Part shown: piece by piece, positions 1-20,129 of the stretch | Numbering within the stretch: position 1 is the stretch's first letter | Layout: every line of letters starts with the position of its first letter | DNA from: a virus | DNA length: 64,000 nucleotides | IMG/VR virus record: IMGVR_UViG_3300028048_000061 | Coordinates: 1-64,000 of that record | Direction: 5' to 3' (one strand) | The notes under the pieces: model-generated | What the model was told of the DNA's origin: nothing | Seen by the model: the letters and a program-made list of their open reading frames with translations, nothing else | Databases searched by the model: none | Translations under genes and position numbers: made by a program

Positions 1-281
1 GATATTTTAATCAAGTAAACTTGATATTTTTTTATTCAAGTAAACTTGATATTTTAATCAAGTAAACTTGATATTTTTTTATTCAAGTAAACTTGATATT
101 TTAATCAAGTAAACTTGATATTTTTTTATTCAAGTAAACTTGATATTTTAATCAAGTAAACTTGATATTTTTTTGATGAATTTTTTATTCAAGTAAACTT
201 GATATTTTAATCAAGTAAACTTGATATTTTTTTGATGAATTTTTTATTCAAGTAAACTTGATATTTTAATCAAGTAAACTT
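1..281. repeat. Tandem array of the near-palindromic 14-mer TCAAGT-AA-ACTTGA (11 copies, the last lacking its final GA, plus a partial copy at the window edge)
   Basis: Core starts at 11, 36, 58, 83, 105, 130, 152, 189, 211, 248, 270; spacings 25/22/25/22/25/22/37/22/37/22 with T-rich linkers. Confidence 0.97.
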
Positions 282-585
282 TAAAAATAGTTTATACCTA
301 TTTTTTATTAAAAAATAGGTTTGTTTAAATTAAATACTTGATTAATAATTTTAATACTTGATTAAAAACTTTTAATTATTTTAATCAATACTATAAGAAT
401 AATTAATAATTGAATACTTTTTATTTTTGATTAGTTTTAATATAGATAACATATAGTATTTACAATAAAATAATTTTATAATATTGTTTAATATTCTTAA
501 TAAAATATTGAATATTGTTCAATATTTTATTAAAAATATTAAAAAAATTGAACAATAAATTTAACATATTTTTATATATTTTTTT

Positions 586-665
586 GTTTGTTTGTATAGT
601 ATTTTTAATAAATATTGTTTGTTTGTATAGTATTTTTAATAAATATTGTTTGTTTGTATAGTATT
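586..665. repeat. 31-bp tandem repeat, about 2.6 copies (gtttgtttgtatagtatttttaataaatatt)
   Basis: Exact copies at 586 and 617, partial copy at 648. Confidence 0.9.
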
Positions 666-974
666 CTTGCGTTATGTTATATTTTTGTTCAGTTTTGAAC
701 AATTTTTAATTTATTCAATATTTTTTAATATTTTTTGTTAGTTTGTTCAATATTTTTTAATTTTTTTGTTATTTTTTTAAAATTTTTGTACAAAAACTTT
801 ATATACTATAAAGTATATACTATATATATCAAGAGGTTAGTAAATACAGTAAGTTTGTCTTTATGTGTTATCTTGAAGTTTTTGTAGTTGTTCTTACTTA
901 CTAATCTTGCTTTATGCGAAGTACAAAAAGTCAGACAAAAATAGTTTAATTAATTATATGTGAGGTTGTTAAAT

Positions 975-2072
975 ATGTTTTTATTTTTGAACAAAAAGCA
1001 ACAAAAAGTTTTTAATCTTTTTGTTGAGTATATTAACTGTATTGTATTTTTTAATGTTGAGTTTAACAAAAATAAGTTTGTAAATAAAAATACTTTATTT
1101 TATACAAATTTAAATTTTTACAAAACTTTTTTTGAACATTATTCATTATTTAAATTTTTGATTAAATGTTTTAAGTTTTTTGATAATAAATCAAATAAAC
1201 AAAAAGTATTAACTTTAATTAATAGAATACTTAAAGATAACAAACAATATATTGTTTTAAATAATTATAATGATATATTGTTATTTATTGCTTTTTGTAA
1301 TGAATACAAAAAGGGATTTATAAGTTATCAAAAAGATTTACTTAGTTTGAATAAACATAACTATATTAAAAAATTTAAAAATATTAATGTTTATATGATT
1401 AATCTTAAATTAAATAAACATGATTTAAATAATAGATATTTTTTAATAGAATATAGTTTATATCAAGAATATTTACAAACTATAAATTGTACTTATTTTG
1501 ATTTAAAGCTCAAAAAAAGTTTTAAGATATTCAAACTTTATTTATTAAGTAAATATAGTTATATGTTTATAAATCTTAGTACAAATAAAAAGGGATTTAC
1601 AAAAAGACAATATTACAATAAAAATTTAAATAAAAGTACAAAAAACATTTATTTAAGTGAGTTAATATTTTTTATTCAATATTATAATGATTTAATTAAA
1701 ATTAATGAATACAATTATTATATTGTAAATAATAATAGTATTTTTAATCATGTGAGAGATTATTTTACTTATTACAAACATGACAGTATAAGTATAATTG
1801 AATACTTTAAATTGTACAATTATAATATTGTTAATGATATATCAAAAAATATAAACTTAGATAATACTATTCATTATAAAGTTATTTTAAATAATATCAA
1901 TAAAGATATAAAATTTAATAATAAATTAAAAGAATATATTACCTTTTTATTACAAAAAGATATTATTACTTTTAATGATATTCAATTATTAATTAAATAT
2001 CAAAAAGGTATATTTAATAATAATTATTATAATAAAGTTTTTGAAAAATACTTTACAAAAAGAATAAAATAA
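975..2072 (+). CDS. Hypothetical 365-aa protein of extreme AT-biased composition (possible origin- or terminus-binding protein)
   Basis: Stop-free for 366 codons in roughly 85% AT DNA (estimate), which is very unlikely by chance. RBS gaggtt precedes ATG 975; TATA-like elements near 790-830. No recognisable motif. Confidence 0.7.
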   Translation: MFLFLNKKQQKVFNLFVEYINCIVFFNVEFNKNKFVNKNTLFYTNLNFYKTFFEHYSLFKFLIKCFKFFDNKSNKQKVLTLINRILKDNKQYIVLNNYNDILLFIAFCNEYKKGFISYQKDLLSLNKHNYIKKFKNINVYMINLKLNKHDLNNRYFLIEYSLYQEYLQTINCTYFDLKLKKSFKIFKLYLLSKYSYMFINLSTNKKGFTKRQYYNKNLNKSTKNIYLSELIFFIQYYNDLIKINEYNYYIVNNNSIFNHVRDYFTYYKHDSISIIEYFKLYNYNIVNDISKNINLDNTIHYKVILNNINKDIKFNNKLKEYITFLLQKDIITFNDIQLLIKYQKGIFNNNYYNKVFEKYFTKRIK

Positions 2073-2139
2073 AATTTTATTCTTTTTGTTTTATTTTTTT
2101 AAAACAAAAATATAACAATTGTTATATTTTTTTGTTTTA
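2057..2139 (+). terminator. Two AT-rich inverted repeats directly after the ORF stop (terminator or cruciform-like)
   Basis: aaaagaataaaa..ttttattctttt followed by T-tracts; then a near-perfect palindrome taaaacaaaaatataacaa|ttgttatatttttttgtttta centred at 2118/2119. Confidence 0.55.
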
Positions 2140-2357
2140 ATCTAATCAAACAATTAACTTAGTTAATAGTTTTAATCTAATCAAACAATTAACTTAGTTA
2201 ATAGTTTTAATCTAATCAAACAATTAACTTAGTTAATAGTTTTAATCTAATCAAACAATTAACTTAGTTAATAGTTTTAATCTAATCGAACAATTAACCA
2301 AGTTAATACTTAACTAAGTTAATTGTTCGTATAAACCCGAACAATTAACCAAGTTAA
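2135..2357. repeat. 35-bp tandem array (4 exact + 1 variant copies), plus one inverted and one isolated direct core copy; iteron-like
   Basis: Unit ttttaatctaatcaaacaattaacttagttaatag at 2135, 2170, 2205, 2240, 2275 (variant); inverted core 2310-2329; direct core 2338-2357. Internal palindrome ATTAAC-TTA-GTTAAT. Confidence 0.95.
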
Positions 2358-4767: not shown

Positions 4768-4944
4768 TCACTTGATTAATGCTTGCAGCAGCAAGATAGC
4801 ATCTCTTATGCTATCGTTTGACATATCGCATTGTTTTAGTGCTGTTGCTATCTTAGGGATTGCGTCTTTCTGATGATTGGTTTGCCCCTTCAACAAGCAA
4901 TACCTGATGCAATCCATTCTTTTCTCGTCCTGATTTAGAGACAT
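4768..4944 (-). CDS. Hypothetical protein, 58 aa
   Basis: Hand-translated MSLNQDEKRMDCIRYCLLKG...; RBS ggaggt; fills the gap between two co-oriented genes. Confidence 0.65.
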   Translation of the reverse strand: MSLNQDEKRMDCIRYCLLKGQTNHQKDAIPKIATALKQCDMSNDSIRDAILLLQALIK

Positions 4945-4956
4945 CTCATACCTCCT

Positions 4957-5376
4957 CTATATGTTGTTTAAAAAATTATCAACATCCTCGTCTGATATGT
5001 AATCTAGCGGCACCTTGGCATTATCGGAATAGTCTTCATCAGGAGCGAATCCGTCAATATACTCCGCTAAGGAATTATCATTGTTGCCGCGGCTTTTATT
5101 ATATCCGTTTGGAAAAAACGTATTGTAAAGGTCTATATAATGAGCCTCAACAATATCTAAATCTTCGTCAGGGACGTCCTCTGCTAAAATACCCACCTCA
5201 AAAAAGTCAGAACCATGCTTTCTAATTGCACGAGACAAGCAAGTGTTGTATGCTCGACGACCCTTCAAGTAAGCTGCTTCAATATGCTGTCGAAACCTCT
5301 TTTCAACGGGCTGGACAGATTGCCCAACATATCTCTTATCGTTCTTAATGTTTCTAATCATATAAATGGTACCCAT
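4957..5376 (-). CDS. GIY-YIG nuclease-domain protein with acidic tail
   Basis: GTIYMIRN..KRYVGQS..KRFRQH..VEAHYI..NGYN; RBS aggagg. Confidence 0.85.
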   Translation of the reverse strand: MGTIYMIRNIKNDKRYVGQSVQPVEKRFRQHIEAAYLKGRRAYNTCLSRAIRKHGSDFFEVGILAEDVPDEDLDIVEAHYIDLYNTFFPNGYNKSRGNNDNSLAEYIDGFAPDEDYSDNAKVPLDYISDEDVDNFLNNI

Positions 5377-5390
5377 AAAAAAATCCTCCT

Positions 5391-5429
5391 AAAAAAAAAG
5401 AGAAACCGATACAAAAGCATCGGTTTCTC
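5391..5429 (-). terminator. Hairpin plus T9 at the end of the tRNA operon
   Basis: 11-bp stem gagaaaccgat/atcggtttctc (5400-5429) followed on the minus strand by T9. Confidence 0.7.
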
Positions 5430-5458
5430 AGTACAAGGTCTTATTATGAAGATTTTAA

Positions 5459-5531
5459 AGCTCTGAGAGAGACTTGAACTCTCAAATCTAAATTACGAGT
5501 TTAGCGTTTTGCCAATTAAAACTATCAGAGC
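5459..5531 (-). tRNA. tRNA-Thr(CGT)
   Basis: Cloverleaf GCTCTGA..CTAAA-CTCGTAA-TTTAG..GAGAG-TTCAAGT-CTCTC-TCAGAGC, discriminator T. Confidence 0.93.
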
Positions 5532-5539
5532 TTTAAAAA

Positions 5540-5676
5540 AGCCACATGAGGGATTTGAACCCCCGACCTCCGAGTGTCTTGTGTCAGTAAGGGTAAATAT
5601 GGGGTGGGTATAGGGGGGATTGGCCATTATACTGACATTACAAGCTCGGCGCACTAGCCAGCTGTGCTAATGTGGC
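5540..5676 (-). tRNA. tRNA-Thr(TGT) with a 63-nt intron at position 37/38 (intron 5576-5638)
   Basis: CCGAG-CTTGTA|intron|A-CTCGG; strict BHB (bulge TAA, helix CTTG/CAAG, bulge ACA) closed by an 8-bp TGTCAGTA/TACTGACA stem; discriminator T. Confidence 0.95.
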
Positions 5677-5762
5677 ATATCAAGGCGCCACGATGGACGC
5701 CTTTGATTTAAAGGAAATGATTTATTCTGGAAAGAAAGAGTTAAAAGAATCTATCTTCCAAA

Positions 5763-5826
5763 TCAAGATGATTGGAATCGAACCAACACCATACGAAGTA
5801 TGAGCTACCACTAAAACTACATCTTG
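5763..5826 (-). ncRNA. tRNA-like RNA (64 nt) with a collapsed anticodon arm
   Basis: Perfect acceptor CAAGATG/CATCTTG, T-arm GTTGG-TTCGATT-CCAAT, D-loop with GG; the anticodon region CATAC-TTC-GTATG lacks a canonical 7-nt U33 loop; variable region about 2 nt. Confidence 0.7.
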
Positions 5827-5965
5827 AACAAGTCGAAATCGACTTGTGCAACATTGTTCACAACAATGTTAATTGATAAATATTCTTATCAAATAATTCG
5901 CTTAATTAATTCTCTAGTTAATTTCTGATTGTTTTTTCAACTAACTTTCTCTCTTCGCGAGAGAA

Positions 5966-6046
5966 CGCCGTGTACAGGATTCGAACCTGCGACTCTTACG
6001 AGACCGCCTTAGCAGGGCGGCGCAATCACCTCTCTGCCAACACGGC
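5966..6046 (-). tRNA. tRNA-Ser(GCT)
   Basis: GCCGTGT..CCGCC-CTGCTAA-GGCGG, long variable arm CTC-GTAA-GAG, TTCGAAT, discriminator G. Confidence 0.95.
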
Positions 6047-6116
6047 AAACGGGGAGGAACACCCCCCTGTAGGGGGGGGTTCGGAAAGTGATACCATGAA
6101 CAAAACTATGTTCAAA

Positions 6117-6191
6117 TAGCGACCCTTGGATTTGAACCAAGCCTCTCGGGGTTATGAGCCCCACGGGATTACCAGACTACCCCAAGTCGCT
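6117..6191 (-). tRNA. Initiator tRNA-Met(CAT)
   Basis: A1-U72 pair, anticodon stem TGGGG-CTCATAA-CCCCG with consecutive G-C pairs, discriminator A: archaeal initiator hallmarks. Confidence 0.92.
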
Positions 6192-6240
6192 AAAAAAATA
6201 AGAGGAATAAATCCTCTTGAAAAAATCACACATAAAAAAT

Positions 6241-6453
6241 TTACATTAATTTTTTAGCTAGTTTTACGTCTTCAGCCATTACGGTTTTTCTGCCAACATG
6301 TTTGGAAATGTTGAGACAGTCTTTCATAAGGCCTCTTGCGTAATCTTCTACATCTTCTAAGATTAAGTCTCTTGCTTCAGCGGATAATCTGTCGCCGCCA
6401 ATTTTTTTGAACATCCTATTAATAGGAGCTTTTGGTAAATCAGTTTTAGTCAT
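6241..6453 (-). CDS. Archaeal histone (HMf family), 70 aa
   Basis: LPKAPINRMFKKIGGDRLS...SKHVGRKTVMAEDVKLA aligns with HMfA/B LPIAPIGRIIK.AGA.RVS...AKHAGRKTIKAEDI.LA; RBS gaggtg before ATG 6453. Confidence 0.95.
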   Translation of the reverse strand: MTKTDLPKAPINRMFKKIGGDRLSAEARDLILEDVEDYARGLMKDCLNISKHVGRKTVMAEDVKLAKKLM

Positions 6454-6576
6454 TATATACACCTCGAATTTATTTTTTTAATCAAACTTTATTGTAGGAC
6501 CCCCTATTAAAATAGGGGGCAAATTAAAAAGGTTGGTAAAACATGTTTTTAAAAACATCGATTATTTCTAATCGAA

Positions 6577-6635
6577 AGCCTTGGATAGGAATCGAACCTA
6601 TCACAACACACCATCTTGTCATATCCAATCAAGGC
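6577..6635 (-). ncRNA. D-armless tRNA-like RNA (59 nt), possibly Thr(GGT)-derived
   Basis: Acceptor GCCTTGA/CCAAGGC (6 pairs + 1 mismatch), T-arm ATAGG-TTCGATT-CCTAT, central hairpin ACAA..TTGT, no D stem, discriminator T. Confidence 0.65.
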
Positions 6636-6681
6636 AAAACCCCCTTATGAAAAGGGGGAAAGGTAATATGAACATTTTAAG

Positions 6682-6763
6682 CGGTCGAGGCAGGATTTGA
6701 ACCTGCGACCCCAGAGGGACTGGTTCTCAAGACCAGCGCAATACCAAACTATGCCACTCGACC
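6682..6763 (-). tRNA. tRNA-Ser(TGA)
   Basis: GGTCGAG..CTGGT-CTTGAGA-ACCAG, long variable arm, TTCAAAT, discriminator G. Confidence 0.95.
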
Positions 6764-6827
6764 AAAAACGCGCAATCACCGAAATGATTGCACGAAAGAG
6801 TCAAAACCATACTTTATTTTACCAGTG

Positions 6828-6898
6828 AGTCTGAGGCAGGGTTTAAACCTGCAATACAAGGGTTGCAGCCAAGCGCATTACCTCTTTGCTACTCAGAC
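6828..6898 (-). tRNA. tRNA-Cys(GCA), partly degenerate
   Basis: GTCTGAG/CTCAGAC acceptor, loop CTGCAAC, discriminator T; two T-T mismatches in the anticodon stem and T-loop TTTAAAC. Confidence 0.75.
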
Positions 6899-6997
6899 AA
6901 GTGAGGGACGGGGGCGAGCCCCCGTATATGTGTCGTGTTAAATATGCGTCGTTTTTGACTTGTGTGCTTTCACACAATATAATATTTGACTTCATAG

Positions 6998-7013
6998 TAT
7001 ATAAATGTTTCGT
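6998..7013 (-). promoter_or_regulatory. BRE-TATA promoter for the leftward tRNA/histone operon
   Basis: Minus strand reads cgaaaca-tttatata, about 100 nt upstream of tRNA-Cys. Confidence 0.6.
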
Positions 7014-7054
7014 TTTTAGACAAAAATCTCCCCAATATGATAATATTTATTTAC

Positions 7055-7069
7055 CGAAAAGTTTAAATA
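7055..7069 (+). promoter_or_regulatory. BRE-TATA promoter for the rightward packaging operon (divergent pair)
   Basis: cgaaaag-tttaaata, the typical methanogen promoter pattern. Confidence 0.6.
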
Positions 7070-7159
7070 TTATAAGAAATATATATTTATATATTTTATT
7101 AAAAATTTTTGAGTAATACTTTTTGAGAAATTCTTCATAACTTTTTAGAGGGTGTTTAT

Positions 7160-7735
7160 ATTACGTGTGGAATATATTGTATTGAAAACAATATTAATAA
7201 AAAAAAATATATTGGTCAAAGCGTCAATATTGAGAAGCGCTTATATCAGCATTGTAATTCATTAAAAAATAACAATCACTCGAATAATCATTTGCAAGGA
7301 GCTTGGAATAAATACGGCGAGAATAATTTTGATATGTTTATTCTAAAATCGTGTAAGCAGAAGTATTTAAATCGTCTCGAGAAAATGTATATTCGTGTAT
7401 ATGATTCCTTTCATAATGGGTATAACCTAACGAAAGGTGGAGACGGGTTTCCTTTGGACGAAGAGTCACGTTATCATCGTGCTTTGGCTAATAGTTTAGC
7501 AACAAATCGTATAGGTGTGATGAATGTATCTAAATTTACTGATGCCAAATATAGACAAGGATTTCGTTATCGGTATCAAAATGCGATAACTGGACAACAT
7601 ATGTATTCATACGACCTTTTAAAGTTAAAAAAGAAAGTAGAAGATAATAATTATAAATGGCTAATAATAAACGAGGACTTATATCAACAATCCTTATTAG
7701 AAAACGAACAATTGAGGTTATTGTATGACAGATAA
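7160..7735 (+). CDS. GIY-YIG homing endonuclease; probable ATT start
   Basis: The frame extends upstream of the track call to (M)TCGIYCIENNINKKKYIGQSVNIEKR; no ATG/GTG/TTG after the in-frame stop at 7124; RBS gagggtg 5 nt before ATT 7160. Confidence 0.85.
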   Translation: MTCGIYCIENNINKKKYIGQSVNIEKRLYQHCNSLKNNNHSNNHLQGAWNKYGENNFDMFILKSCKQKYLNRLEKMYIRVYDSFHNGYNLTKGGDGFPLDEESRYHRALANSLATNRIGVMNVSKFTDAKYRQGFRYRYQNAITGQHMYSYDLLKLKKKVEDNNYKWLIINEDLYQQSLLENEQLRLLYDR

Positions 7736-9284
7736 ATCTCATTTAAAAAAGATTTTACAAAGAGCAAAAAATGATAAGGTTTTCTTTGCAAAGAATTTCT
7801 TGAGAGACCCAGACAATGAGCCATATGAATTAGAGCCTCATCAAGCAGCTTTTTTGAACGACCCACACCCATTTAAAATTTTATTATGTTCAAGGCGTTC
7901 GGGAAAGTCCTTGTTGTTTCAGATGGATATTTTACATAAATTATTTTTCTTGAAAAATCAAAATATTGGAGCATTATTTCCAACTCTTGCTCAAGCTCGA
8001 GAATTTGGAAAAACTTTTGACGATTTAGTATACAGGTCTCCTTTAATAAGCTCCTCATTTGCTGTTGATAACAAATTAGATAAAATGTTGATTAATAGGA
8101 ATCGTTTTAAGATAGCGAGCGCAGGAACTAAATCTGGACAATCAGAGGATTCTGCACAAGTTGGTGCAGGTTTTTCATCATTGCTTCTTGATGAAACACA
8201 ATCACTTGATGAAGAGTCTTTATCAACTATCATTCCAACAATCTTAGGTCAAAAAAGCAACACTACGACTTTAATGTTAGCAGGAACACCACGTACAAAG
8301 CGTGATTTCTTTTATAAAAACATACAAAATTCATTTCAAATAACCGATACAAGCAAAAGTCCCACACCAAAACCATTAAAAAAGGATGGTATTTTTAGTT
8401 TACATCGTTTTCAGGTTACAGAAGTAGATGAGACAGGAAAGATTTTATATACACGTTCACCAAAGCGATTAAGCATCGCGGATTTAGAATCTGTAAGAAG
8501 TGTAATTGGCACAGAAAAGTTTAGGCGAGAGTTTTGTCTTGAATTTCTTGATACAACATCACTTCCATTTTACGATGAGCTTGTTCAAGCTCAAGGATAT
8601 TTGCCAAAACCAGACGTTTTTCAATCTAAACAAATTTGTGTTGGAGGAATTGACTTTGGTAAAGTTCGAAATAATTCTGTTTTATGTATTGCAGAATTTA
8701 ATCCAAAAATTCATAAATGGGAGGCCAAATATTTTAAGTCATGGAATCTTGGAACAAAATATCAAGATATCATACATTATGTTAATAATATTTTGCCAAT
8801 ACGATTTCCTAAGCTATTAATGCTTGGGGTTGACGCAACTGGTGTTGGAAAGTCTATTACCGAAGGATTAAATTATCAAAATCGTTTTGAAATAAAGGAT
8901 ATTTTGTTTTCACAACCGATGAAAGTATCTCTTGTGGAAAATTCTGTAATGAATTTAGAGACAGATTATGTTCGTTTTTATAAACATCCAATATTAGATA
9001 AAGAAATGGCATCATATACAAGATTAATAAATGACAATGGAAGGGTTTTGTTCGAAAAAGGAGAATCCGATGACTTTGTAGATGCATTTAATATGTGTAA
9101 TAATGTTATTACTGACGTAACAAATAAAGGATTATTGTATAAAACAAACATAGCTGTTACTGGATTGGGGGGCAGCATTGTTGATATGAATAAAAACTTT
9201 AGAGGCAGTAATCCAACTTATAATACTTATAATTTGCGACAAGCAAGAGAAAATAAACAAGGAATATCTTCATTAAGGAGGTAG
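7725..9284 (+). CDS. terL: Terminase large subunit
   Basis: Walker A-like CSRRSGKS, Walker B LLLDE, coupling AGTP, RNase H-like nuclease GIDFG..S, GVDATGVG and DDFVDA. Confidence 0.95.
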   Translation: MTDKSHLKKILQRAKNDKVFFAKNFLRDPDNEPYELEPHQAAFLNDPHPFKILLCSRRSGKSLLFQMDILHKLFFLKNQNIGALFPTLAQAREFGKTFDDLVYRSPLISSSFAVDNKLDKMLINRNRFKIASAGTKSGQSEDSAQVGAGFSSLLLDETQSLDEESLSTIIPTILGQKSNTTTLMLAGTPRTKRDFFYKNIQNSFQITDTSKSPTPKPLKKDGIFSLHRFQVTEVDETGKILYTRSPKRLSIADLESVRSVIGTEKFRREFCLEFLDTTSLPFYDELVQAQGYLPKPDVFQSKQICVGGIDFGKVRNNSVLCIAEFNPKIHKWEAKYFKSWNLGTKYQDIIHYVNNILPIRFPKLLMLGVDATGVGKSITEGLNYQNRFEIKDILFSQPMKVSLVENSVMNLETDYVRFYKHPILDKEMASYTRLINDNGRVLFEKGESDDFVDAFNMCNNVITDVTNKGLLYKTNIAVTGLGGSIVDMNKNFRGSNPTYNTYNLRQARENKQGISSLRR

Positions 9285-9287
9285 CAT

Positions 9288-10688
9288 ATGACACAAAAAA
9301 AGAAAACACGCAAAATAAGCGTAAATACTGAAACATTAAAAAAAGACGACAAGAAACCACAGACGACAAAACAAAAAAGTCCATCAGGGCTTCCAACAAG
9401 GGTGCTTGTCTCAAATCAATCAATGTATCGAGTACAATCATTTAAAACAACGAATTTTGCTCGTAAAATAAGTTATGACCTTATAGACTCGGTATATGAC
9501 AGAACAATATTAAAGAAAATCATTACTAAATATAAATTTTCAATCGTACCGAATTATTTTCAAGTTCGAGTAGAAAATCTCGATGGAACAAGAAACGAAG
9601 ACCTTGAGCGATTAATTACGCCTATTTCCTCGATTATTAGTCGAGATTTACTAATGAATGCAGTAAAAGGATTTTTCTTATATGGGACATCAATTATTTA
9701 CAAAGGCGATGTCAATGAAAAAGGAGAATATAATCAACTATTTTTATTAAGAATACAAGATTTAGAGCCAGAATATGATTGGGAAAATGATTTTCAATTA
9801 GTTGGATTTAAGTATTACTATAAAAGGGAGTATATTTTTATTCCTCTCGAAGATGTTGCGATATTTGCAAACGACCCAGCTGTTGGAGAATTATTTGGAA
9901 CTGGATTATTAAATAACTTATTTGAAACATTAAATCAATTTTTAAACGATAAGCTTGGTTTAACTGAAATTTTAGATAGATATGCATTACCATTAGTGCA
10001 ATGGGCTGTTGATGTATCTGATGCCGGATTCTTGAGTGAAGACGATATTATTGCAAAAACAAGACAAACGCTTTATGAACAATTAGAGTTTGGTGACGAT
10101 ATTGTTTCAGACGCCAGAATTGAACCAAAAATTATAGAGTTTTCAAATATTTCAGAAAATTTACTTGGAATTCTTCAAGAAGCGCGAAAAGATATTGGAA
10201 TTTTAACAATTCCAGAGCCATTATTAGGAGGAACCATTTCAAATCTTTCCGGTGGTAAAATTCAACAAGCGGTATTTAATGATGAAATTAGAGGATACCA
10301 AGCTATATTAAATGATTTTGTAGTAAAGGAATTTTATCTTCCGTTTTTAAAAAAGCAAGGTTATGTACAAAATGAAGATTTTAAACAAGTTTATATGAAT
10401 TTCCCTCTACAAACATCTGAATTGCCATCTGATGCAATTATTTGGATAAAACAAGCTGTTGAAATGGGATTAATGACTTTTGATGAGGCCAGAGCGACGC
10501 TTGGTCTTAGAGGAAAAGCACCTTTAACAACTCCAGAATTAGAAGATTATTTCATCACAAAAACATTAAAAGATGACCAATCTGATGAAAACTACCAAGA
10601 TGATAATAAATTAGAACCGAAAAATCGTTCTGGTAAAGACCCAACCAACAATGTTAATGAAGATGGATATGATGGGGAAAGAAGATAA
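9288..10688 (+). CDS. Portal protein
   Basis: Directly follows TerL; 466 aa; portal-like segments (FANDPAVGELFGTGLL; GLMTFDEARATLGL). Confidence 0.85.
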   Translation: MTQKKKTRKISVNTETLKKDDKKPQTTKQKSPSGLPTRVLVSNQSMYRVQSFKTTNFARKISYDLIDSVYDRTILKKIITKYKFSIVPNYFQVRVENLDGTRNEDLERLITPISSIISRDLLMNAVKGFFLYGTSIIYKGDVNEKGEYNQLFLLRIQDLEPEYDWENDFQLVGFKYYYKREYIFIPLEDVAIFANDPAVGELFGTGLLNNLFETLNQFLNDKLGLTEILDRYALPLVQWAVDVSDAGFLSEDDIIAKTRQTLYEQLEFGDDIVSDARIEPKIIEFSNISENLLGILQEARKDIGILTIPEPLLGGTISNLSGGKIQQAVFNDEIRGYQAILNDFVVKEFYLPFLKKQGYVQNEDFKQVYMNFPLQTSELPSDAIIWIKQAVEMGLMTFDEARATLGLRGKAPLTTPELEDYFITKTLKDDQSDENYQDDNKLEPKNRSGKDPTNNVNEDGYDGERR

Positions 10689-10703
10689 TATCGAGGTGAG
10701 CAT

Positions 10704-11378
10704 ATGACTTTTTACTTATATCATATTATCAATAAAAATACTGGTCACATATATATTGGGCGTACTCAAAATGATGACCAATGGATTCAACATCAGTATT
10801 TTTTAGATACGAATCAGCATTTTAGTAGATTAATGCAAAAACATTATAATAATGGAAGCGGATTTGAATATAACATTATTGAAAAATCAGATGACCCCTT
10901 ATATATAGCAGAAAAAGCTATTCATCTTATTGAAGAGCTTGAAACTATTAATCCAATGAAAGGATACAACTCATTTTTTGATGGTCAGGGCATTGGTAAA
11001 CGAGGGGCAAAACTTAATATATATGATGAAGATGTTTTGTTTTATTTTTTAAAAAATAACAAATCAAAAACATTGAAAAAATTTGATATTTCAAGCAATG
11101 TTTTTGATTATCGTATTCAAAGACAAGGCTTTGGTCAACAAGGAGACGCTATACCAATATCAACATATGAGAGTTTGTATTGCTTTTGCGCACAAGAGGC
11201 CGTATTATCACCAGACCCAATCTCGGCATCAAGCCTGATGGATAGGTGTTTCCAATTATATGATGTTTCTCGAAGATTGAGACCAACCCCACATAAGATA
11301 TCAAAAAATCTTAAAGCATTTGGTATTCCTCAAATCAAGAAGAATGGATTAATCTATTTTACATCAAATGATAATTAA
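10704..11378 (+). CDS. GIY-YIG-like protein with a putative C-terminal HTH/wHTH region
   Basis: FYLYHIIN..HIYIGRT..QH..E..KGYN; the usual catalytic Arg position reads QW. Confidence 0.7.
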   Translation: MTFYLYHIINKNTGHIYIGRTQNDDQWIQHQYFLDTNQHFSRLMQKHYNNGSGFEYNIIEKSDDPLYIAEKAIHLIEELETINPMKGYNSFFDGQGIGKRGAKLNIYDEDVLFYFLKNNKSKTLKKFDISSNVFDYRIQRQGFGQQGDAIPISTYESLYCFCAQEAVLSPDPISASSLMDRCFQLYDVSRRLRPTPHKISKNLKAFGIPQIKKNGLIYFTSNDN

Positions 11379-11443
11379 CATTTTTATATTTCCAATTTTA
11401 GATATATTTACATAATAAAATTTTATTATCGAGGTTAATGCTT

Positions 11444-12520
11444 ATGTTAACAGAAAGATTACATTTACAATCAAATGGGTTAAATGGTCTTAGCGTCCTC
11501 GATGATGGCAGAACGCAAGTGTCTGGCATTGCAATCAATCCCGGTAAATATCACGGATTGATTAGAATCGAAGAAGATGAAATGCAAAACGCCGTTGATA
11601 ACTTATTAGGCGATATTATTTTAAAAGACCATGATAACTCTTGTGATTCAGCTATTGGTAGAGTTACATCTACTGAACTCGCTATCAATGAAAAAACTGG
11701 TATGCGATGTGCTAAATACGAGGGTTGGATTGACTCAGATGAAAAAAAATTAATTAACAAAATCAACAAGGGAATCATAGACTCAACTTCAATTGGTTTT
11801 TCATATGAACCATATTGTAGTATTTGTGGTCGCCCTTTAGAAGAGTGTAATCACTTTATCTGGGACGATGGCTTCGAGATTATTGCAAAAAACATTGCAC
11901 CTCATGAGCTATCCATTGTGTCAGTACCAGCTGATAAAAATGCAACTGTAAGCACTTTTAGCGCTACAGAAACCCTGAGTGATAAATTGATTGAACTTAA
12001 AGAACAAAAAAGACAACAAAAAGGAGAAAACAATATGGATTTCGAAGAAAAATATTCAGAATTAGAAGCTGAATTCGAAGAATTCAAAGAATCTGCAAAA
12101 ACTGAGTTAGAAGAACTCAAAGCAGAACACGAAACCAAAATTTCTGATAAAATTGAAGAAACATTATCTTTAAAACAAGAATTACAAGAAGCAAAAGATG
12201 CTCTTGCAGCAGCAGACTCCGAATTAGAAGTTTTAAAAGCTGAATTAGCACAAATTGCTGAAGAAAAATTAAGCGAATTAAGAGCAAAAGTAACAGAATT
12301 AAACGAAAAAGTATCAGCAGGTTTAACTGAAGAAGAAATCTCTGAATTAAGTGAATCTGGTTTACACAGATACGTAGATATGTTTACTAAAATCATTGAA
12401 GCACAACCAAGTTTTGAGCCAGCTCCACAAGCAACTCACCAATATTCCAAAGGCGAAGATGAGTTAAGTGAAGATGCTTCAACTCTTGAAAAACTTATGT
12501 ATAAAAGAGAACAATTATAA
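11444..12520 (+). CDS. Prohead protease fused to a coiled-coil scaffold
   Basis: HK97-type protease motifs ILKDHD, STSIGF, ELSIVSVPAD; acidic coiled-coil C-terminal half; RBS gaggtt. Confidence 0.88.
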   Translation: MLTERLHLQSNGLNGLSVLDDGRTQVSGIAINPGKYHGLIRIEEDEMQNAVDNLLGDIILKDHDNSCDSAIGRVTSTELAINEKTGMRCAKYEGWIDSDEKKLINKINKGIIDSTSIGFSYEPYCSICGRPLEECNHFIWDDGFEIIAKNIAPHELSIVSVPADKNATVSTFSATETLSDKLIELKEQKRQQKGENNMDFEEKYSELEAEFEEFKESAKTELEELKAEHETKISDKIEETLSLKQELQEAKDALAAADSELEVLKAELAQIAEEKLSELRAKVTELNEKVSAGLTEEEISELSESGLHRYVDMFTKIIEAQPSFEPAPQATHQYSKGEDELSEDASTLEKLMYKREQL

Positions 12521-12532
12521 GGAGATTAGAAT

Positions 12533-13039
12533 ATGATTGAATCAAGCGGACAAATATTAACAGGTAGAGCATCTCAAGATTTAGCAGCTGTTATTACCAA
12601 CAGACCAGACGCTAACGGTTTTTACAGAAGCGCATACAAAGCTTTAGTAATCGACAGTACCAAAGCAGCAGCTGAAGACTCAAAAACTAAAGGAACTTGG
12701 GTAAAAATCGCTCAATCAAGCAACACCTTTGACGAATTCGTTGGTGTAGTAGGAGACGACCACGCACCTCAAGCAAATATCGAATTAACCTCATACAACC
12801 CAGTATGTGATTGGAAAGCAGACTACAATGTCAAAGCTGGTGACGTAGTAACCTTTGAAAGAAACGGTATTATTTCTGTAATTGCAGGAGATGACATTAC
12901 CGAAGGAGACTACTTAAAATTAGGCGACGACGGAACATTCGTACCAGAAACTGCAGCAAACGCATACAAAGCAGTTGGAAGAGCTTATGAAACAGCAGAA
13001 GAAGGCGAAAGATTCAGAGCAATGATTAGAAGTTTATAA
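12533..13039 (+). CDS. Capsid decoration/cement protein
   Basis: Lies between protease and MCP; ends ..AGDDITEGDYLKLGDDG..VGRAYE.A, a cement-like pattern; high-expression codon bias. Confidence 0.65.
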   Translation: MIESSGQILTGRASQDLAAVITNRPDANGFYRSAYKALVIDSTKAAAEDSKTKGTWVKIAQSSNTFDEFVGVVGDDHAPQANIELTSYNPVCDWKADYNVKAGDVVTFERNGIISVIAGDDITEGDYLKLGDDGTFVPETAANAYKAVGRAYETAEEGERFRAMIRSL

Positions 13040-13051
13040 GGAGACGAGAAA

Positions 13052-13951
13052 ATGCAAAGTTTAGAACATTTCGCACACGCACCACAAGAATCAGACGGTT
13101 ATCAAAGAAATAATACTACCATTGCACCAGAAATTATCACATACTTAAAAGACGAATGTGACTTAAGAGAGTTCTTTGTACCAAAACCAATGCAAGGTGT
13201 ATTATCCAAATCATTCAGAATAGAAAAAGAAGAAGGAGTAGCAGTACAAATCGCAGGTAACGCAGAAGTACCACGTGCAGAAAACGTACAAAAACTCTTC
13301 ACCATTTACTTACACAGAAATGCAACCGGATACAAAATCGACGATGACGAAAGAAAAATGAATAGCGACGACCCGGGCTATGAAGCAAGAAAAATGGAAA
13401 ACGCAATGAAAAGAATGCTTAAAAAAGAAAGATTAGACATGACACAAGTATTCTTAGCAGCACCGGGCGGAGTAACCAACGTCACAGGTGGATTATCAAG
13501 CCTCAACGTATCCGTAATTAAAGCAGCAGTAGATGCAATGATTGCATCAGCATCCGTAGAAGACGACATCGAACCAACAATGTTATTCATGTCCTACGCA
13601 GCATTCAGACAATTACAAGCAGACCCTGACTTCAAATACATCCCAGAAGTCTTCCAAAAACTCTTATTAGAAGGAAGATTTATGGAAGGTGGAAGAACTA
13701 ATAAAAGAGCAATCAGCGGTCCAACCGGTCAATACATCGACGGTATTGAAATTTACATTGTAAACGAGTTAGGAAACGACATTATTCTCTTAGATGAAAC
13801 CAAAGACGCATTATGGTTAGCAGAAGACCAACAACCAACCATCACATCTTACAGAGACTACGAACATATTTCCGATATCGTAGATATCCGTCACGACCAA
13901 CAACCAGTCTGTGTAAGACCAGAAGCGTTATATAAAATTCACATTCAATAA
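13052..13951 (+). CDS. Major capsid protein (HK97 fold)
   Basis: Position, 299 aa, strong high-expression codon bias, HK97-like C-terminus (IDGIEIYIVN..D..IRH...VRPEALYKI). Confidence 0.85.
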   Translation: MQSLEHFAHAPQESDGYQRNNTTIAPEIITYLKDECDLREFFVPKPMQGVLSKSFRIEKEEGVAVQIAGNAEVPRAENVQKLFTIYLHRNATGYKIDDDERKMNSDDPGYEARKMENAMKRMLKKERLDMTQVFLAAPGGVTNVTGGLSSLNVSVIKAAVDAMIASASVEDDIEPTMLFMSYAAFRQLQADPDFKYIPEVFQKLLLEGRFMEGGRTNKRAISGPTGQYIDGIEIYIVNELGNDIILLDETKDALWLAEDQQPTITSYRDYEHISDIVDIRHDQQPVCVRPEALYKIHIQ

Positions 13952-13986
13952 GTAAATAGCTATACGTAAAAAACAGAGGTGACAAA

Positions 13987-14472
13987 ATGGCTAGAAAAAG
14001 CACAAAAAAATCAAAAGAAAAAGAGGCTGAAACAGAGTCTAAAGAAGAAAAGAAAACTACAAAAAAGAGTACTAAAACCAAAAAAACAAATGATAATATA
14101 AAATTAACCTTTAGACCAATATTTTCAGCAGCTACAACTTTTACAGCGTATCTTCAACATAGAGTGCAACGCGTAAATAATGGGAATGAAGTAATGGTTG
14201 ATGAACCAATCATTGAAGGATTACCGGGTATTTTAACTGTTAAAGCTGGAGAAATCATTACCGTAACCCAAGAGCAATTAGATAAACTTGTAGAATTAGG
14301 TTTCGTAGAATCCGAAGAACAAGTTGCAGACAGAAAAGCAATCGAGAAAGGATTAGCACCACAACATCCTGAGAGATTATCATATGATGTCATGGCAACA
14401 AATCGTGATTTTAACATAAAACCTCGTGAACTTGAAAAAATTTATACTGACAAATTAATAATAGTTGATTAG
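13987..14472 (+). CDS. Hypothetical virion protein with Lys/Glu-rich N-terminus
   Basis: RBS gaggtg; lies in the head module. Confidence 0.6.
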   Translation: MARKSTKKSKEKEAETESKEEKKTTKKSTKTKKTNDNIKLTFRPIFSAATTFTAYLQHRVQRVNNGNEVMVDEPIIEGLPGILTVKAGEIITVTQEQLDKLVELGFVESEEQVADRKAIEKGLAPQHPERLSYDVMATNRDFNIKPRELEKIYTDKLIIVD

Positions 14473-14473
14473 A

Positions 14474-14917
14474 ATGTTAATAGTAGATGATATACGATTT
14501 ATGCTAAATCTAAGCGAAGAAGATATACCAGATGAGGATATACAAAGATATATTGATAATTATACATTAAAAATTTATGAATATGTCGGCGGAAGAGTTG
14601 ATTGTCCAAAGCTTATCAACTCCCCATTATTTGATGAGGTATTGTTAGCAGGAATTGCTTGTCATCTATCTATGGTTCACCCAGAACTCTTAATCTTTCC
14701 ATCAAAATATCGCGTAGGAGATACACAAGAGGAGTTTTCTGATGCGACACTTGGAAAAACACCTTCTTGGTGTTCAAGATATAGCGATGCATTGGATGCG
14801 TTATTAAAAAGCTTTGTTGAGATTCAAAATTTGTATACATTCAGGCGACGTGGTTTGCGTACTCATAGACGTTGGAGAAGAGACGATGATGAGCTTTATG
14901 ATTACGGTTATTATTAG
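14474..14917 (+). CDS. Head-tail adaptor/connector
   Basis: Position and size; LIVDDIRFMLNL..IPDEDIQRYID helical start and SKYRVGD (gp15-like). Confidence 0.65.
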   Translation: MLIVDDIRFMLNLSEEDIPDEDIQRYIDNYTLKIYEYVGGRVDCPKLINSPLFDEVLLAGIACHLSMVHPELLIFPSKYRVGDTQEEFSDATLGKTPSWCSRYSDALDALLKSFVEIQNLYTFRRRGLRTHRRWRRDDDELYDYGYY

Positions 14918-14926
14918 GAGCTAATT

Positions 14927-15313
14927 ATGTCATTTCGAACAATTATGAGATGGGTAAATCGACCTGATGAACAAATGATACTAATGAAATTTGATAAAAC
15001 TGAATTTCAAGATGAATTTGGTTTTGCAAAAGAAACATTAGTGGAAATACAGGAAATACATGGAGTAATACAATTATTTCAAAATGAAGAAATAAGTTTC
15101 AAGGGAGAAGAATCCAATCCAAATTATACAGGATATTTTTTACCAGAGTTTATTTTAGAAACTAATAAGCTCGCAGATTATCGGATTAAATATATTCGCC
15201 CACACGAAACACAAATTCTTAAAATATCTTCATATAATCCAAATAGATTTTTACGACATACGAGAGACCATATACAATTACAATTAATATTGGAGAAAAA
15301 ATATCATGCCTGA
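14927..15313 (+). CDS. Head closure (stopper)-like protein
   Basis: Position; beta-rich 128 aa with DEFG motif. Confidence 0.55.
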   Translation: MSFRTIMRWVNRPDEQMILMKFDKTEFQDEFGFAKETLVEIQEIHGVIQLFQNEEISFKGEESNPNYTGYFLPEFILETNKLADYRIKYIRPHETQILKISSYNPNRFLRHTRDHIQLQLILEKKYHA

Positions 15314-16019
15314 GGGTTTTCATTCAGCTACATCTTATGTGGAAGCTAATCCATTATTTCGCCTTGAAACATCTGCATCTTGGGACGGCTATAACAATGT
15401 CTTAGGTTTTTTTCTTAGTTCATGGGGAGATAAACCATTATCTGATGAACAATTAGAAAAAATTGGTGCGGACGCAGTAAAAGTCGCACAAAATTTATTA
15501 GATGAACAGGTATATAGTCACGTCGGCAGCTCAGAACGTACATATAAGTTATGGGGGTCAATTAAAAGTGATTCTCGAGGAGGCTCTGTTAATGTTTACT
15601 CTGATGCACGCTCTCCAATAGGCTATCCATATGCAGGAAGCATTGAATATGGTTTTCATCCATATGGTCATAGCACTTTTATTCCTCCAAGACCATTTCT
15701 AAGACCAGCTTTAGAATTTGCTGTTAATGCAACACGTGCCAGTTGGGAGGCAAACGTTGAACATATGGTTCATGTATTGGCAAATAATGATTTAAGTTTA
15801 AGTCATTTCCTCGCCTATGGTAATGACTTGGGGGCAAGTCGAAGAAATTGGGGAAGAAATCTTCAATCACATATTGATTATAATAGTATGTCTCGTATGC
15901 GCGGCGCAACAACAGTTGGAATTAATCGAGGCAGATATTCTCATGAGGCAAACCAATCTAGATATGGAACCGAAAAAGGAGCGTATCATCGTATTTGGGA
16001 TGTAGACACACGGAGATGA
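15306..16019 (+). CDS. HK97 gp10-like neck/tail completion protein
   Basis: RTYKLWGSI, YAGSIEYG, IPPRPFLRPAL motifs. Confidence 0.75.
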   Translation: MPEGFHSATSYVEANPLFRLETSASWDGYNNVLGFFLSSWGDKPLSDEQLEKIGADAVKVAQNLLDEQVYSHVGSSERTYKLWGSIKSDSRGGSVNVYSDARSPIGYPYAGSIEYGFHPYGHSTFIPPRPFLRPALEFAVNATRASWEANVEHMVHVLANNDLSLSHFLAYGNDLGASRRNWGRNLQSHIDYNSMSRMRGATTVGINRGRYSHEANQSRYGTEKGAYHRIWDVDTRR

Positions 16020-16025
16020 TAATTA

Positions 16026-16796
16026 ATGAATCAAATTATTAAAACAATGTGTGAAATATTAGGAGACCATCAATTAGAAGGCGGTTATTTATTCCCATAT
16101 ACAGAAAAGCCAATTCCTATTCTTTTAAATAAAGATAAAACAACTTCATATCCTGAAATCCGATTATCTACGTTCATTCAAAATTCTGATTATTATACAG
16201 AAAGATATAGAGAAAAAACATTAAGAGACTATCGAGAATGGAAAACTGCTAAATTTCAAGTTGATATATTCTCGCAAGACCTTGCAGAGGTTAATAACAT
16301 CTATTTAGAGTTAAGAGACCGTATCTATGATTTTTTCAATTTAGAAGTTTTAACACATAGCTATAACCGACATTTTATAAAACAAAATGATAATTTATAT
16401 AAAAATATCGCTTATGCTTTAAATAGTGATTTCTTTGTTGATATTTATCATATTGAGGTTTGTAATAAACCTCTTTTGCGGGTATTTTCTCTTAATAATC
16501 TCGTTGATGAGTCCTTCTTTATTGATAATGAAGCGTTATATATTCAAACATCAGGTGATATTAGGACGGTTAAGGTAACTATGATTACTCAGGGCCGTTT
16601 ATTTGATGATAAAACATCTCCATCTAATCGTGGTATAGCATTTCATGAAATTGGTGACCCTCGTAATCTAAGCGAACTTGAATCTAATGAGGTTGAGCGT
16701 ATTTCTTTTGATATTTATATCTTATTTGCAGCTAAGCGTACCCGAGATAAATTACCAGACGTTGATATGCTACGTATTAAGGATAAAACAAAGTGA
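16026..16796 (+). CDS. Putative tail terminator
   Basis: Position before the sheath; FQVDIFSQD pattern. Confidence 0.5.
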   Translation: MNQIIKTMCEILGDHQLEGGYLFPYTEKPIPILLNKDKTTSYPEIRLSTFIQNSDYYTERYREKTLRDYREWKTAKFQVDIFSQDLAEVNNIYLELRDRIYDFFNLEVLTHSYNRHFIKQNDNLYKNIAYALNSDFFVDIYHIEVCNKPLLRVFSLNNLVDESFFIDNEALYIQTSGDIRTVKVTMITQGRLFDDKTSPSNRGIAFHEIGDPRNLSELESNEVERISFDIYILFAAKRTRDKLPDVDMLRIKDKTK

Positions 16797-16801
16797 TTTT
16801 T

Positions 16802-17035
16802 ATGGCAGAAAAGAAAAAAACAACAAAAGCTAAATCTACTAAAAAAGCTAGTTCTTTACTTCCTGTTAAAGAAGAAAAAGAGCAACCTAAAGAAGAGGTT
16901 TACTCTTTTCAAGAATTAGCTGATATGTTTGGAATAAGTGCAATGAAAGTCAGGGCATATTTCAATATGTCACAGTTAGATTATAGTGAAAAAATAACGA
17001 TTAAAAAAGCAAGAGAATTATTTAAAAAATTTTAG
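16802..17035 (+). CDS. Small hypothetical protein (possible HTH: SFQELADMFGISAMKV)
   Basis: RBS; Lys-rich N-terminus; HTH-like stretch. Confidence 0.55.
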   Translation: MAEKKKTTKAKSTKKASSLLPVKEEKEQPKEEVYSFQELADMFGISAMKVRAYFNMSQLDYSEKITIKKARELFKKF

Positions 17036-17046
17036 GAGATTAAAAT

Positions 17047-18858: not shown

Positions 18859-18875
18859 GATTAGGAGGCTAAAAC

Positions 18876-19331
18876 ATGGCAAACGAAGACGCAACTAAAA
18901 TATGGACCAACGGTTATATCGTATTAGGAACAAGCACAAGAATCCCTGTACAAGAAGTCTCCATTGATTTATCAAGAGATTTAAAAGAACACTATAATTC
19001 TGGTGTATCAAAACCATCAGCACTCGTACCGGGGCAAGAAAAAATTGAATTCAAAATTAAAAGAATCTTTTCAAACACAACATTAATGCAAATTTATTTG
19101 AATAGATGTTCTTTTAACATGATTTTATTCAACAATTCAAGTAATCCGGGAGATAATACCCAAGGTGAATCTGTTTGCTCATTAACAGGTTGTATCCTTG
19201 ATAAAAACAGTATAAGCCTCGGAGGAAGCGGGGATCCCGTGCAAGAGGACGTATCAGGTAAGGCATTAGATATTACGTTCAATTTAACTGAAATAGCATC
19301 GATGGTTAACGCAGCTTGTAACAATTTGTAA
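18876..19331 (+). CDS. Tail tube protein
   Basis: 151 aa directly after the sheath; beta-rich. Confidence 0.8.
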   Translation: MANEDATKIWTNGYIVLGTSTRIPVQEVSIDLSRDLKEHYNSGVSKPSALVPGQEKIEFKIKRIFSNTTLMQIYLNRCSFNMILFNNSSNPGDNTQGESVCSLTGCILDKNSISLGGSGDPVQEDVSGKALDITFNLTEIASMVNAACNNL

Positions 19332-19342
19332 TTAAAGCAATA

Positions 19343-19957
19343 TTATTGCTTTAATTCTTTTTTTATTTTTTCTAATTTTTTTTCTAATTTTTGTTTATTA
19401 ATTGACCTTTCAATAATTTTTGTATTATATTTTATCCCATAGACTTGTTTTCCTCGTTTAAATCCTTTTTTGATAATACGAGGCTCTTTTTTAAAATTAT
19501 GATGAAGCTCTTTGGTTTTGTTATACATAGGATTTGATGCCCCTTTGTGAATGCTCCTTTTTTTCATCGTATTAGATATTTTTTGTTTTGTTTCTATTGA
19601 TAATACTTTACCTTGATTGATTTTGCTTAACTTATCTTTTTGTTTATCACTCATTTTATATCCTGATATGCCTTCTCCACCATTTGTAAAATTAAAACAA
19701 GGATTATATTTTTTAATAAAATAAATTTCTAATTGATTTAAGTGATTATCTGAGCAATCATCTTTACTAAATAAAACCTTATATTGATATCTATCACGAT
19801 TATTTTGTATTACACGATTTATTACTTGTCGATTATAATTATATCGTAATTGGTGGTCATATCGTCTTTTATGCTTATCGATATTCGAATCTTTACCAAT
19901 ATACACAATTTTATCATTATATTGTGTATCCACATAACAATAAATTCCTTTTGTCAT
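19343..19957 (-). CDS. GIY-YIG homing endonuclease (antisense insertion), NUMOD3-like region
   Basis: MTKGIYCYVD..VYIGKDSNID..FNFTNGGEG; SDKQKDKLS / SIETKQKIS repeats. Confidence 0.9.
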   Translation of the reverse strand: MTKGIYCYVDTQYNDKIVYIGKDSNIDKHKRRYDHQLRYNYNRQVINRVIQNNRDRYQYKVLFSKDDCSDNHLNQLEIYFIKKYNPCFNFTNGGEGISGYKMSDKQKDKLSKINQGKVLSIETKQKISNTMKKRSIHKGASNPMYNKTKELHHNFKKEPRIIKKGFKRGKQVYGIKYNTKIIERSINKQKLEKKLEKIKKELKQ

Positions 19958-20028
19958 ATTATTATTTTTTGTCCTAACTAATATTTAAATATATCTCATT
20001 ATAAACATATAATATATTATAATAATAT

Positions 20029-20100: not shown

Positions 20101-20129
20101 CTAATGTTCATATTAGCAGAGGTAATAAA

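Follow-up and report, generated by a model that had tools for sequence, protein, structure and literature searches.

The described proteins closest to the histone examined here are HMfA and HMfB from Methanothermus fervidus and HPhA from Pyrococcus horikoshii (PDB 1b67, 1a7w, 5t5k, 1ku5), which resemble it in length, three-helix fold and full alpha3, and share with it R10, R19, G16, H49, R52, T54, D59 and L62 (HMfB numbering, i.e. the residue number of the viral histone minus 3; the alignment is ungapped with a constant offset of +3). The viral histone differs from them in being virus-encoded, more basic and placed on a long separate branch, and in having LPKAP for LPIAP, a loop-1 GG instead of GA, and two lysines at the 14-48 stacking pair. 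The histones of Nucleocytoviricota (doublets and singlets of Marseillevirus and Medusavirus) are likewise virus-encoded and have a DNA-wrapping histone fold, wrapping being a prediction in our case. However, they are eukaryote-like homologs of H2A, H2B, H3 and H4, often fused, packaged in virions and found in viruses of eukaryotic hosts, whereas ours is of archaeal type, single, and encoded by a tailed virus. A purely functional analogy can be drawn with TF1 of SPO1 (an HU homolog) and Sfh of plasmid R27 (an H-NS homolog), mobile-element copies of host chromatin proteins by which the element's own DNA-coating protein covers its own DNA or spares the host pool; their folds are unrelated to the histone and the systems are bacterial. 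Histone-fold proteins from tailed-virus metagenomes were also described by Schwab et al. (2024) as 'phage histones', which have an alpha3 truncated to 3-4 residues, lack RxTxxxxD and carry a tetramerisation helix at the C-terminus (PMC11390915). Our protein, with an alpha3 of 10 residues, RKTVMAED and no C-terminal extension, falls outside that group. More directly related is the survey of IMG/VR 4 by Liu et al. (2025; PMC13681535), which reports archaeal-like histones encoded by Caudoviricetes whose predicted hosts are Methanobacteriota, that is, the same kind of gene, database and predicted host phylum; the viral histone would pass its HMM cut-off. We found no locus-level or functional analysis of the Caudoviricetes histones in it. 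Histones of tailed archaeal viruses were first noted in this survey; none is known to have been studied, and their role in infection is not known to have been tested. Compared with what is set out there, we add tRNA-embedded synteny, lineage-wide conservation, selection, the scoring of hypernucleosome residues and a second histone-fold gene.

The stretch analysed here, hereafter the window, comprises the first 64 kb of an IMG/VR head-tail virus record of 154,713 bp (154.7 kb), with an estimated record completeness of ~90%. The initial annotation had proposed a canonical HMf-type histone in a head-tail virus, and this assignment is upheld by Pfam, by PDB comparisons and by AlphaFold2 (AF2), with head genes adjoining the histone gene. 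Although the minus-strand open reading frame (ORF) spans 6241..6462, we read the ATG at 6453 as the true start. When the upstream regions of five independent contigs were aligned, the GAGGTGTA stretch at the ribosome-binding site was invariant, and almost all homologs have 70 aa; since a ribosome-binding site precedes the ATG at 6453 and the resulting length is the one typical of homologs, the limits 6241-6453, stop included, are exact. The protein matches Pfam PF00808 (archaeal histone/NF-Y) with an E value of 2.9e-13 and 50.3 bits against a cut-off of 21.4. Its PDB sequence matches are HPhA (4e-13) and HMfA/HMfB (~1e-11 to 2e-11), all ungapped, and its gap-free identity to these three proteins is ~37-42%. 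The AF2 model, built from a 26-row alignment, has a pLDDT of 95.2 and places alpha1 at 9-17, alpha2 at 25-52 and alpha3 at 60-69. In a Foldseek search its best matches were HMfA, HPhA and HMfB (TM 0.85-0.90, rmsd ~1 A), and superposition on HMfB of the hypernucleosome crystal 5t5k gave a TM of 0.90 and an rmsd of 0.9 A. The three helices, full alpha3, length of ~65-70 aa and lack of tails are those of a nucleosomal HMfB-type fold. All the motifs quoted in the initial annotation are present, namely N12-R13-M14, I18-G19-G20, D21-R22-L23-S24, L32-E33-D34-V35-E36-D37-Y38, K51-H52-V53-G54 and R55-K56-T57-V58...D62-V63, and the match of the predicted protein to the HMf signature is far beyond chance.

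Syntenic histone loci were found in at least seven independent contigs from different samples (L003, L004, L005, L094, L095, L096 and L097). Their neighbours are fixed: the divergent portal and terminase, sometimes with a homing endonuclease, occupy one flank and GIY-YIG, a small ORF and an ORF of ~390 aa the other, and same-strand tRNAs border the histone on both sides. A word-index search returned 23 close homologs with 73-90% identity, all metagenomic, and a second cluster at 63% identity includes one sequence recorded from 195 sample blocks and also from a contig of 147 kb. Overall, family members occur on hundreds of contigs, including near-complete ones of 147-165 kb. When 1.84 billion representatives were searched exhaustively with HMMER, no sequence fell between the viral family and the histones of cells, among which a Methanosphaera paralog was the best match at 46% identity. 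Among ~186,000 genomes, one per prokaryotic species, there were 571 histone loci with a top identity of 52%, and no provirus copy of the viral histone. Histones had been described as uncommon in archaeal head-tail viruses, and our searches agree: no histone match was obtained in 50,697 GenBank phage records, and among 2.9 million IMG/VR contigs the patterns used picked out only 12 further loci, all at <=45% identity, three of which carry the Methanosphaera-type paralog. Considering these few loci and the 2025 report of archaeal-like Caudoviricetes histones, the gene is rare and its kind already known.

The phylogeny proposed earlier as a check was computed as a quick maximum-likelihood tree with SH-aLRT supports, whose 70 columns limit its resolution. 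The 21 viral sequences form one clade (SH-aLRT 99) apart from cellular histones; its stem measures 0.86 substitutions per site. A gene recently acquired from a host and nearly identical to the histone there, one outcome that the initial annotation had held would undo its claim, is therefore not what we see, the cellular identity being at most 52% and the clade having a long stem. The viral clade groups weakly (SH-aLRT 81) with the Methanosphaera paralog (P0172/P0173) and Methanocorpusculum histones, the closest cellular sequences at 44-49% identity, which share PKAP/PKAA and the alpha2 E-A-Y motif with it; the Methanosphaera paralog differs by being acidic (net charge -2) and by its HADRKT motif. 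Pairwise dN/dS among five viral histone genes ranged from 0.09 to 0.29 with dS of 0.65-2, which indicates that the gene is under purifying selection. As the record is a metagenome assembly, the first 2.3 kb of which deviate in composition (14.5% GC), we had to consider whether the gene is a piece of host DNA joined to a viral contig by mis-assembly, or a functionless recent capture. Such an origin is hardly credible when at least seven independent contigs share identical synteny, every copy in the species genomes stays at or below 52% identity and purifying selection extends across saturating synonymous divergence; we consider it refuted by these three observations. The fixed synteny and the absence from cellular genomes instead identify a virus-encoded gene and not a mis-binned host gene. 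Judging from these sequence comparisons, the histone belongs to the core genes of a group of head-tail viruses, 147-165 kb in size, that is widespread and has methanogens of the cattle gut as hosts.

Other histone-fold genes were seen in IMG/VR contigs. The histone at L103:3001-3195 is 90% identical to the acidic Methanosphaera HADRKT paralog, and related forms of this paralog are found at L104:2260-2454 and L105:3001-3192 (contigs of 12-77 kb for the three loci). Histone genes may have moved more than once between gut Methanobacteriales and viruses. In addition, two contigs of ~165 kb and 26% GC (L113:3001-3183 and L114:3001-3183) carry a very divergent 80-aa histone-fold ORF with LPKAP and INRKT motifs, without equivalents of H49 and G16.

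The coordinates of the features discussed are given in Table 1. The histone is the sole protein gene within a 1.5-kb same-strand run of tRNAs and tRNA-like elements, an arrangement that is conserved in relatives; the array as a whole (5459-6898) comprises six clear tRNAs and two weak tRNA-like elements (5763-5826 and 6577-6635). The order tRNA-Cys/tRNA-Ser(TGA) is repeated in L003 and L096. The T-arm-like block of the element at 6577..6635 is conserved in five of five upstream alignments, neither ARAGORN nor Rfam calls a tRNA there, and the element may be a processing signal. A GC hairpin similar to that lying between this element and the histone is found upstream in L096, with a putative function in both. 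Behind the stop codon lies a terminator-like region with several T-runs; archaeal transcription terminates at oligo-T. Over the whole genome, structural genes occupy the plus strand from 7.3 to 68 kb and the rest is nearly all on the minus strand, so that the tRNA-histone unit heads the leftward non-structural arm and faces the head genes. Co-transcription of the histone with the tRNAs, from which it would be freed by tRNA-processing enzymes, is plausible. Six metatranscriptome runs contain 8-30% of the words sampled from positions 4900-9300, a figure for this interval as a whole and not for each gene.

Table 1. Features of the histone locus, the adjoining head module and the second histone-fold gene (positions in the window unless stated otherwise)
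Feature	Position	Strand	Remarks	Evidence
tRNA-Thr	5459-5531	minus	downstream of histone	ARAGORN/Rfam
Intron-bearing tRNA	5540-5676	minus	downstream of histone	ARAGORN/Rfam
Weak tRNA-like match	5763-5826	minus	downstream of histone	ARAGORN/Rfam
tRNA-Ser(GCT)	5966-6046	minus	downstream of histone	ARAGORN/Rfam
Initiator tRNA-Met	6117-6191	minus	downstream of histone; A1:U72	ARAGORN/Rfam; A1:U72 by sequence reading
Terminator-like region	6192..6240	minus	after the stop; T-runs 6239-6234 and 6225-6220, hairpin 6218-6200, T7 6198-6192	sequence reading
Histone CDS, 70 aa	6241..6453	minus	stop codon at 6241-6243	ORF list, Pfam, PDB alignments, AF2
Ribosome-binding site	6454..6465	minus	GAGGTG at 6465-6460 and 6-nt spacer before histone ATG	sequence reading
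GC-rich hairpin	6500..6520	minus	GCCCCCTA...TAGGGGG; between upstream tRNA-like element and histone	sequence reading
tRNA-like element	6577..6635	minus	5' of histone; T-arm motif GGTTCGATTCC	conserved T-arm-like block
tRNA-Ser(TGA)	6682-6763	minus	upstream of histone	ARAGORN; Rfam
tRNA-Cys	6828-6898	minus	upstream of histone	ARAGORN; Rfam tRNA (54 and 61 bits for this tRNA and tRNA-Ser(TGA))
Candidate archaeal TATA box	6998..7005	minus	TTTATATA; in divergent region, putatively heading the leftward tRNA-histone run	sequence reading
Terminase large subunit	7725-9284	plus		Pfam; tags on syntenic relatives
Portal	9288-10688	plus		Pfam; tags on syntenic relatives
GIY-YIG	10704-11378	plus		Pfam; tags on syntenic relatives
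Prohead protease	11438-12520	plus		Pfam; tags on syntenic relatives
Cement-like gene	12533-13039	plus		Pfam; tags on syntenic relatives
Major capsid	13052-13951	plus		Pfam; tags on syntenic relatives
HF2, acidic histone-fold ORF, 101 aa	G000 126,660-126,965; L002:1432-1737	plus	outside the window	sub-threshold histone-fold matches

The head module (7725..13951, plus strand), which runs divergently to the histone and is followed by a long tail module, establishes that the contig is viral. Its terminase is 29% identical to that of Methanobacterium virus PhiF1 over 86% of its length (E 5e-52), the only full-length terminase match among deposited phages. The intron-bearing tRNA and the archaeal/eukaryotic A1:U72 pair of the initiator tRNA-Met point to an archaeal host; this initiator is 91% identical over 56 nt to those of two Methanobrevibacter genomes, against 78% for Methanocorpusculum. 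The viral DNA, with a GC content of 32%, is present in bovine gut metagenomes of at least nine studies. The host is thus most likely a rumen methanogen of the Methanobacteriales, probably Methanobrevibacter or Methanosphaera. A CRISPR-spacer search of window positions 7001-27000 against 314 genomes of the family to which a rumen Methanobrevibacter belongs gave low-complexity and tRNA-like matches only, and two 36-nt matches at 92% identity were located outside repeat arrays. The pseudomurein endoisopeptidase family PF12386 had no match in the viral genome, and control genomes were likewise silent.

Several replication and repair genes are grouped on the minus strand (G000 68869-99728), where we found rubrerythrin, anaerobic ribonucleotide reductase NrdD, a DUF2828/DUF7788 (TROVE-like) protein, a dCTP deaminase-like enzyme, an XPF/ERCC4-HhH nuclease, Mre11-like and Rad50-like proteins and an XPD-like helicase. 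The block also holds a bacterial-type DNA polymerase III alpha (DnaE; G000 78038-81369, minus strand; L098:14041-17369), in which the PHP-domain gene stands apart from the catalytic gene; this bacterial-type split DnaE contrasts with the archaeal host indicated by the tRNAs and the histone. Two DprA-like genes lie at G000 146,253-149,010.

We scored the residues of the viral histone against the archaeal histone criteria that Henneman et al. published in 2018 (PMC6136690). R10 and R19 of HMfB, which anchor the protein in the minor groove, correspond to R13 and R22, the R-D clamp and RKT motif (R52/T54/D59) to R55/T57/D62, and the stacking glycine G16 of loop 1 to G19. The tetramer interface L46/H49/D59/L62, read from the alignment, is retained as I49/H52/D62/L65, with the conservative change of L46 to Ile as its lone difference. 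All 21 viral and five cellular sequences of alignment A1 share R13, G19, R22, H52, R55, T57 and D62. Among the stacking pairs, which were likewise scored from the alignment, two of three are kept: E33-K64 (30-61) and D37-K68 (34-65) are favourable, and K17-K51 (14-48) is unfavourable. Many archaeal histones, including HTkB, have the pairs E30-K61 and E34-K65 (PMC6136690). The suggestion that an unusually acidic alpha2 (LEDVEDY) alters stacking is therefore not supported: E33 and D37 lie at HMfB positions 30 and 34 and are the normal partners of K64 and K68, with HTkB-like polarity. It is countered also by the charge of the family as a whole, which is more basic than that of its cellular counterparts (median net charge and pI of +4 and 9.6 for the viral histones, +1 and 8.0 for 80 cellular histones). 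In the capstone variants of Stevens et al. 2020 (PMC7776873), the histidine at position 49 is replaced by an acidic or hydrophobic residue and the tetramer is unstable; as H52 occupies this position here, the 70-aa histone is not a capstone variant. By each of these sequence and fold comparisons the predicted protein belongs to the nucleosomal archaeal histones, and DNA wrapping, expected in steps of ~30 bp for each dimer, is a prediction that follows from this membership.

Our preferred reading, which we hold to be somewhat better than an even chance, is that the gene encodes a functional HMfB-type histone of the viral lineage, made in the infected cell to coat new viral DNA. Together with the tRNAs around it, the gene would be transcribed at the start of the leftward arm, and its message translated from the strong ribosome-binding site. 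The product is expected to form handshake dimers, anchored to DNA minor grooves by R13 and R22, which would tetramerise via I49, H52, D62 and L65. These tetramers might extend into hypernucleosome-like stacks via G19, E33-K64 and D37-K68, and the unfavourable K17-K51 pair counts against this last step. Supplied in the infected cell, the histone could coat the large quantities of viral DNA synthesised there and control the access of nucleases and of the transcription machinery to this DNA. The virus has its own nucleotide and replication set (NrdD, split DnaE, Mre11/Rad50 and others), which fits heavy DNA synthesis during infection, and its DNA output could therefore exceed the host histone supply. 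AA/TT dinucleotides of the viral genome peaked at 12.5 bp (z 1.9 against shuffles), with no significant 10-bp signal; this periodicity thus gives no sign of a viral genome adapted to wrapping.

The basic charge of the family, together with its complete dimer and tetramer interfaces, would also suit a protein acting on the chromatin of the host. As a homodimer, or as a heterodimer with host paralogs, the viral histone might over-compact or re-format the host genome and shut down host and defence genes, and its position as the first protein-coding gene of the leftward arm is in line with such a role. Archaeal paralogs heterodimerise flexibly (PMC7776873); however, the viral histone is only 40-46% identical to Methanobrevibacter and Methanosphaera histones, so that its compatibility with them is putative. 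We regard this takeover as a possible but distinctly less probable explanation, which is moreover compatible with the coating of viral DNA and so not exclusive of it. Chromatinising viral DNA is the simplest role and host-chromatin invasion or silencing the main alternative, and both may hold.

Tailed viruses (Caudoviricetes) translocate naked duplex DNA through the portal by means of the terminase motor. Since this motor moves naked DNA, histone compaction inside the capsid is unlikely, and under the coating reading the histone would be stripped and naked DNA pumped into capsids. This bears on a further proposal, that of a capsid-loaded histone which, as in Marseilleviridae, condenses the genome or escorts it. 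Giant-virus histones are indeed packaged in virions (cited in PMC11390915), and our gene adjoins the head module, albeit divergently. But a terminase-portal packaging machine is present, and the histone lies on the strand opposite to all structural genes and is grouped with tRNAs, which leaves a virion protein very improbable.

A second gene, HF2, encodes a 101-aa acidic protein with a net charge of -7. Its matches in Pfam and PDB are to histone-fold families only, all sub-threshold (18.7 bits against 21.4 in Pfam), and it aligns ungapped to the histone profile (hhalign E 9.5e-5). The predicted structure is a helix-loop-long helix-loop-helix of low confidence (pLDDT 62), for which the top Foldseek matches are all histones with E values of 0.15 or worse, none of them significant. 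The HF2 family is small and restricted to this virus group. In HMfB numbering it conserves N10, N19, S16, E46, Y49 and C62, as well as an acidic aromatic tail, and it is without both arginine anchors and the tetramer histidine. HF2 and the histone occur together in the 154,713-bp genome, and their co-occurrence appears to extend to near-complete contigs of 165,188 and 159,185 bp. A complex prediction of the two proteins, weakly in favour of a pair, scored 0.52 against 0.00 for the best control, with runs agreeing in at least 97% of contacts and a partner pLDDT of at least 69. In the calibration of this score, the mark was reached by 58 of 80 solved complexes and by 2 of 110 mismatched pairs; the passes at scores <=0.60 consisted of 7 of the 80 solved complexes plus both mismatches. 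Given that any two histone folds can model as a handshake pair, we treat the prediction as a lead and not as a finding.

The histone might then be mainly one half of a two-protein system, in which a heterodimer with HF2 caps, limits or redirects histone polymers. The exclusive histone-fold matches, the ungapped alignment, the conserved residues, the charge and the shared contigs of HF2 speak for it. We nevertheless doubt this proposal strongly, in view of the sub-threshold Pfam score, the poor model and the Foldseek results, and because the two genes are 120 kb apart on opposite strands. As a fuller and equally doubtful version, the virus could possess a two-part chromatin kit, a basic wrapping histone plus HF2, which would pair with the viral histone or with host histones and so cap or dismantle histone polymers. 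If this were true, HF2 would be a virus-encoded capstone or anti-histone, and chromatin on viral and on host DNA would be tuned separately.

Returning to the 70-aa histone itself, the present locus offers a clean case, that of a selected core gene in an abundant, near-complete 155-kb lineage of rumen methanogen viruses. The gains that such a virus might draw from a histone include coating of replicating genomes, evasion of nucleases or CRISPR and silencing of the host. Because the protein is small and easily expressed, and the residues known from HMfB can be mutated, the benefit of a histone to a virus that packages naked DNA is directly testable. The methanogen hosts are the main biological source of cattle methane, and there is some applied interest in the biology of these viruses and their hosts.

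Some other features of the genome deserve mention. GIY-YIG homing-endonuclease-like genes are found near the histone-terminase junction at 4957-5376 (minus), 7292-7735 (plus) and 10704-11378 (plus), and the relatives L003, L094 and L097 have NUMOD3/HNH-type homing-endonuclease-like genes around it too. That these genes differ between relatives suggests mobile endonuclease traffic at the junction. Window positions 1-2340 form an extremely AT-rich island (14.5% GC versus ~33% elsewhere), in which tandem repeats at 1-290 and 2130-2290 flank a 370-aa Asn/Lys/Ile-rich ORF (960-2072) with no family match. The opposite contig end (~154,520-154,713) likewise closes in tandem repeats. The island could be an origin or iteron region with its initiator, a genome terminus or an assembly join. 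Finally, a choloylglycine (bile-salt) hydrolase gene is present on the minus strand (G000 117544-118485; L100:13547-14485), with a Pfam CBAH match of E 6e-48, and may be an auxiliary gene tied to the gut habitat.
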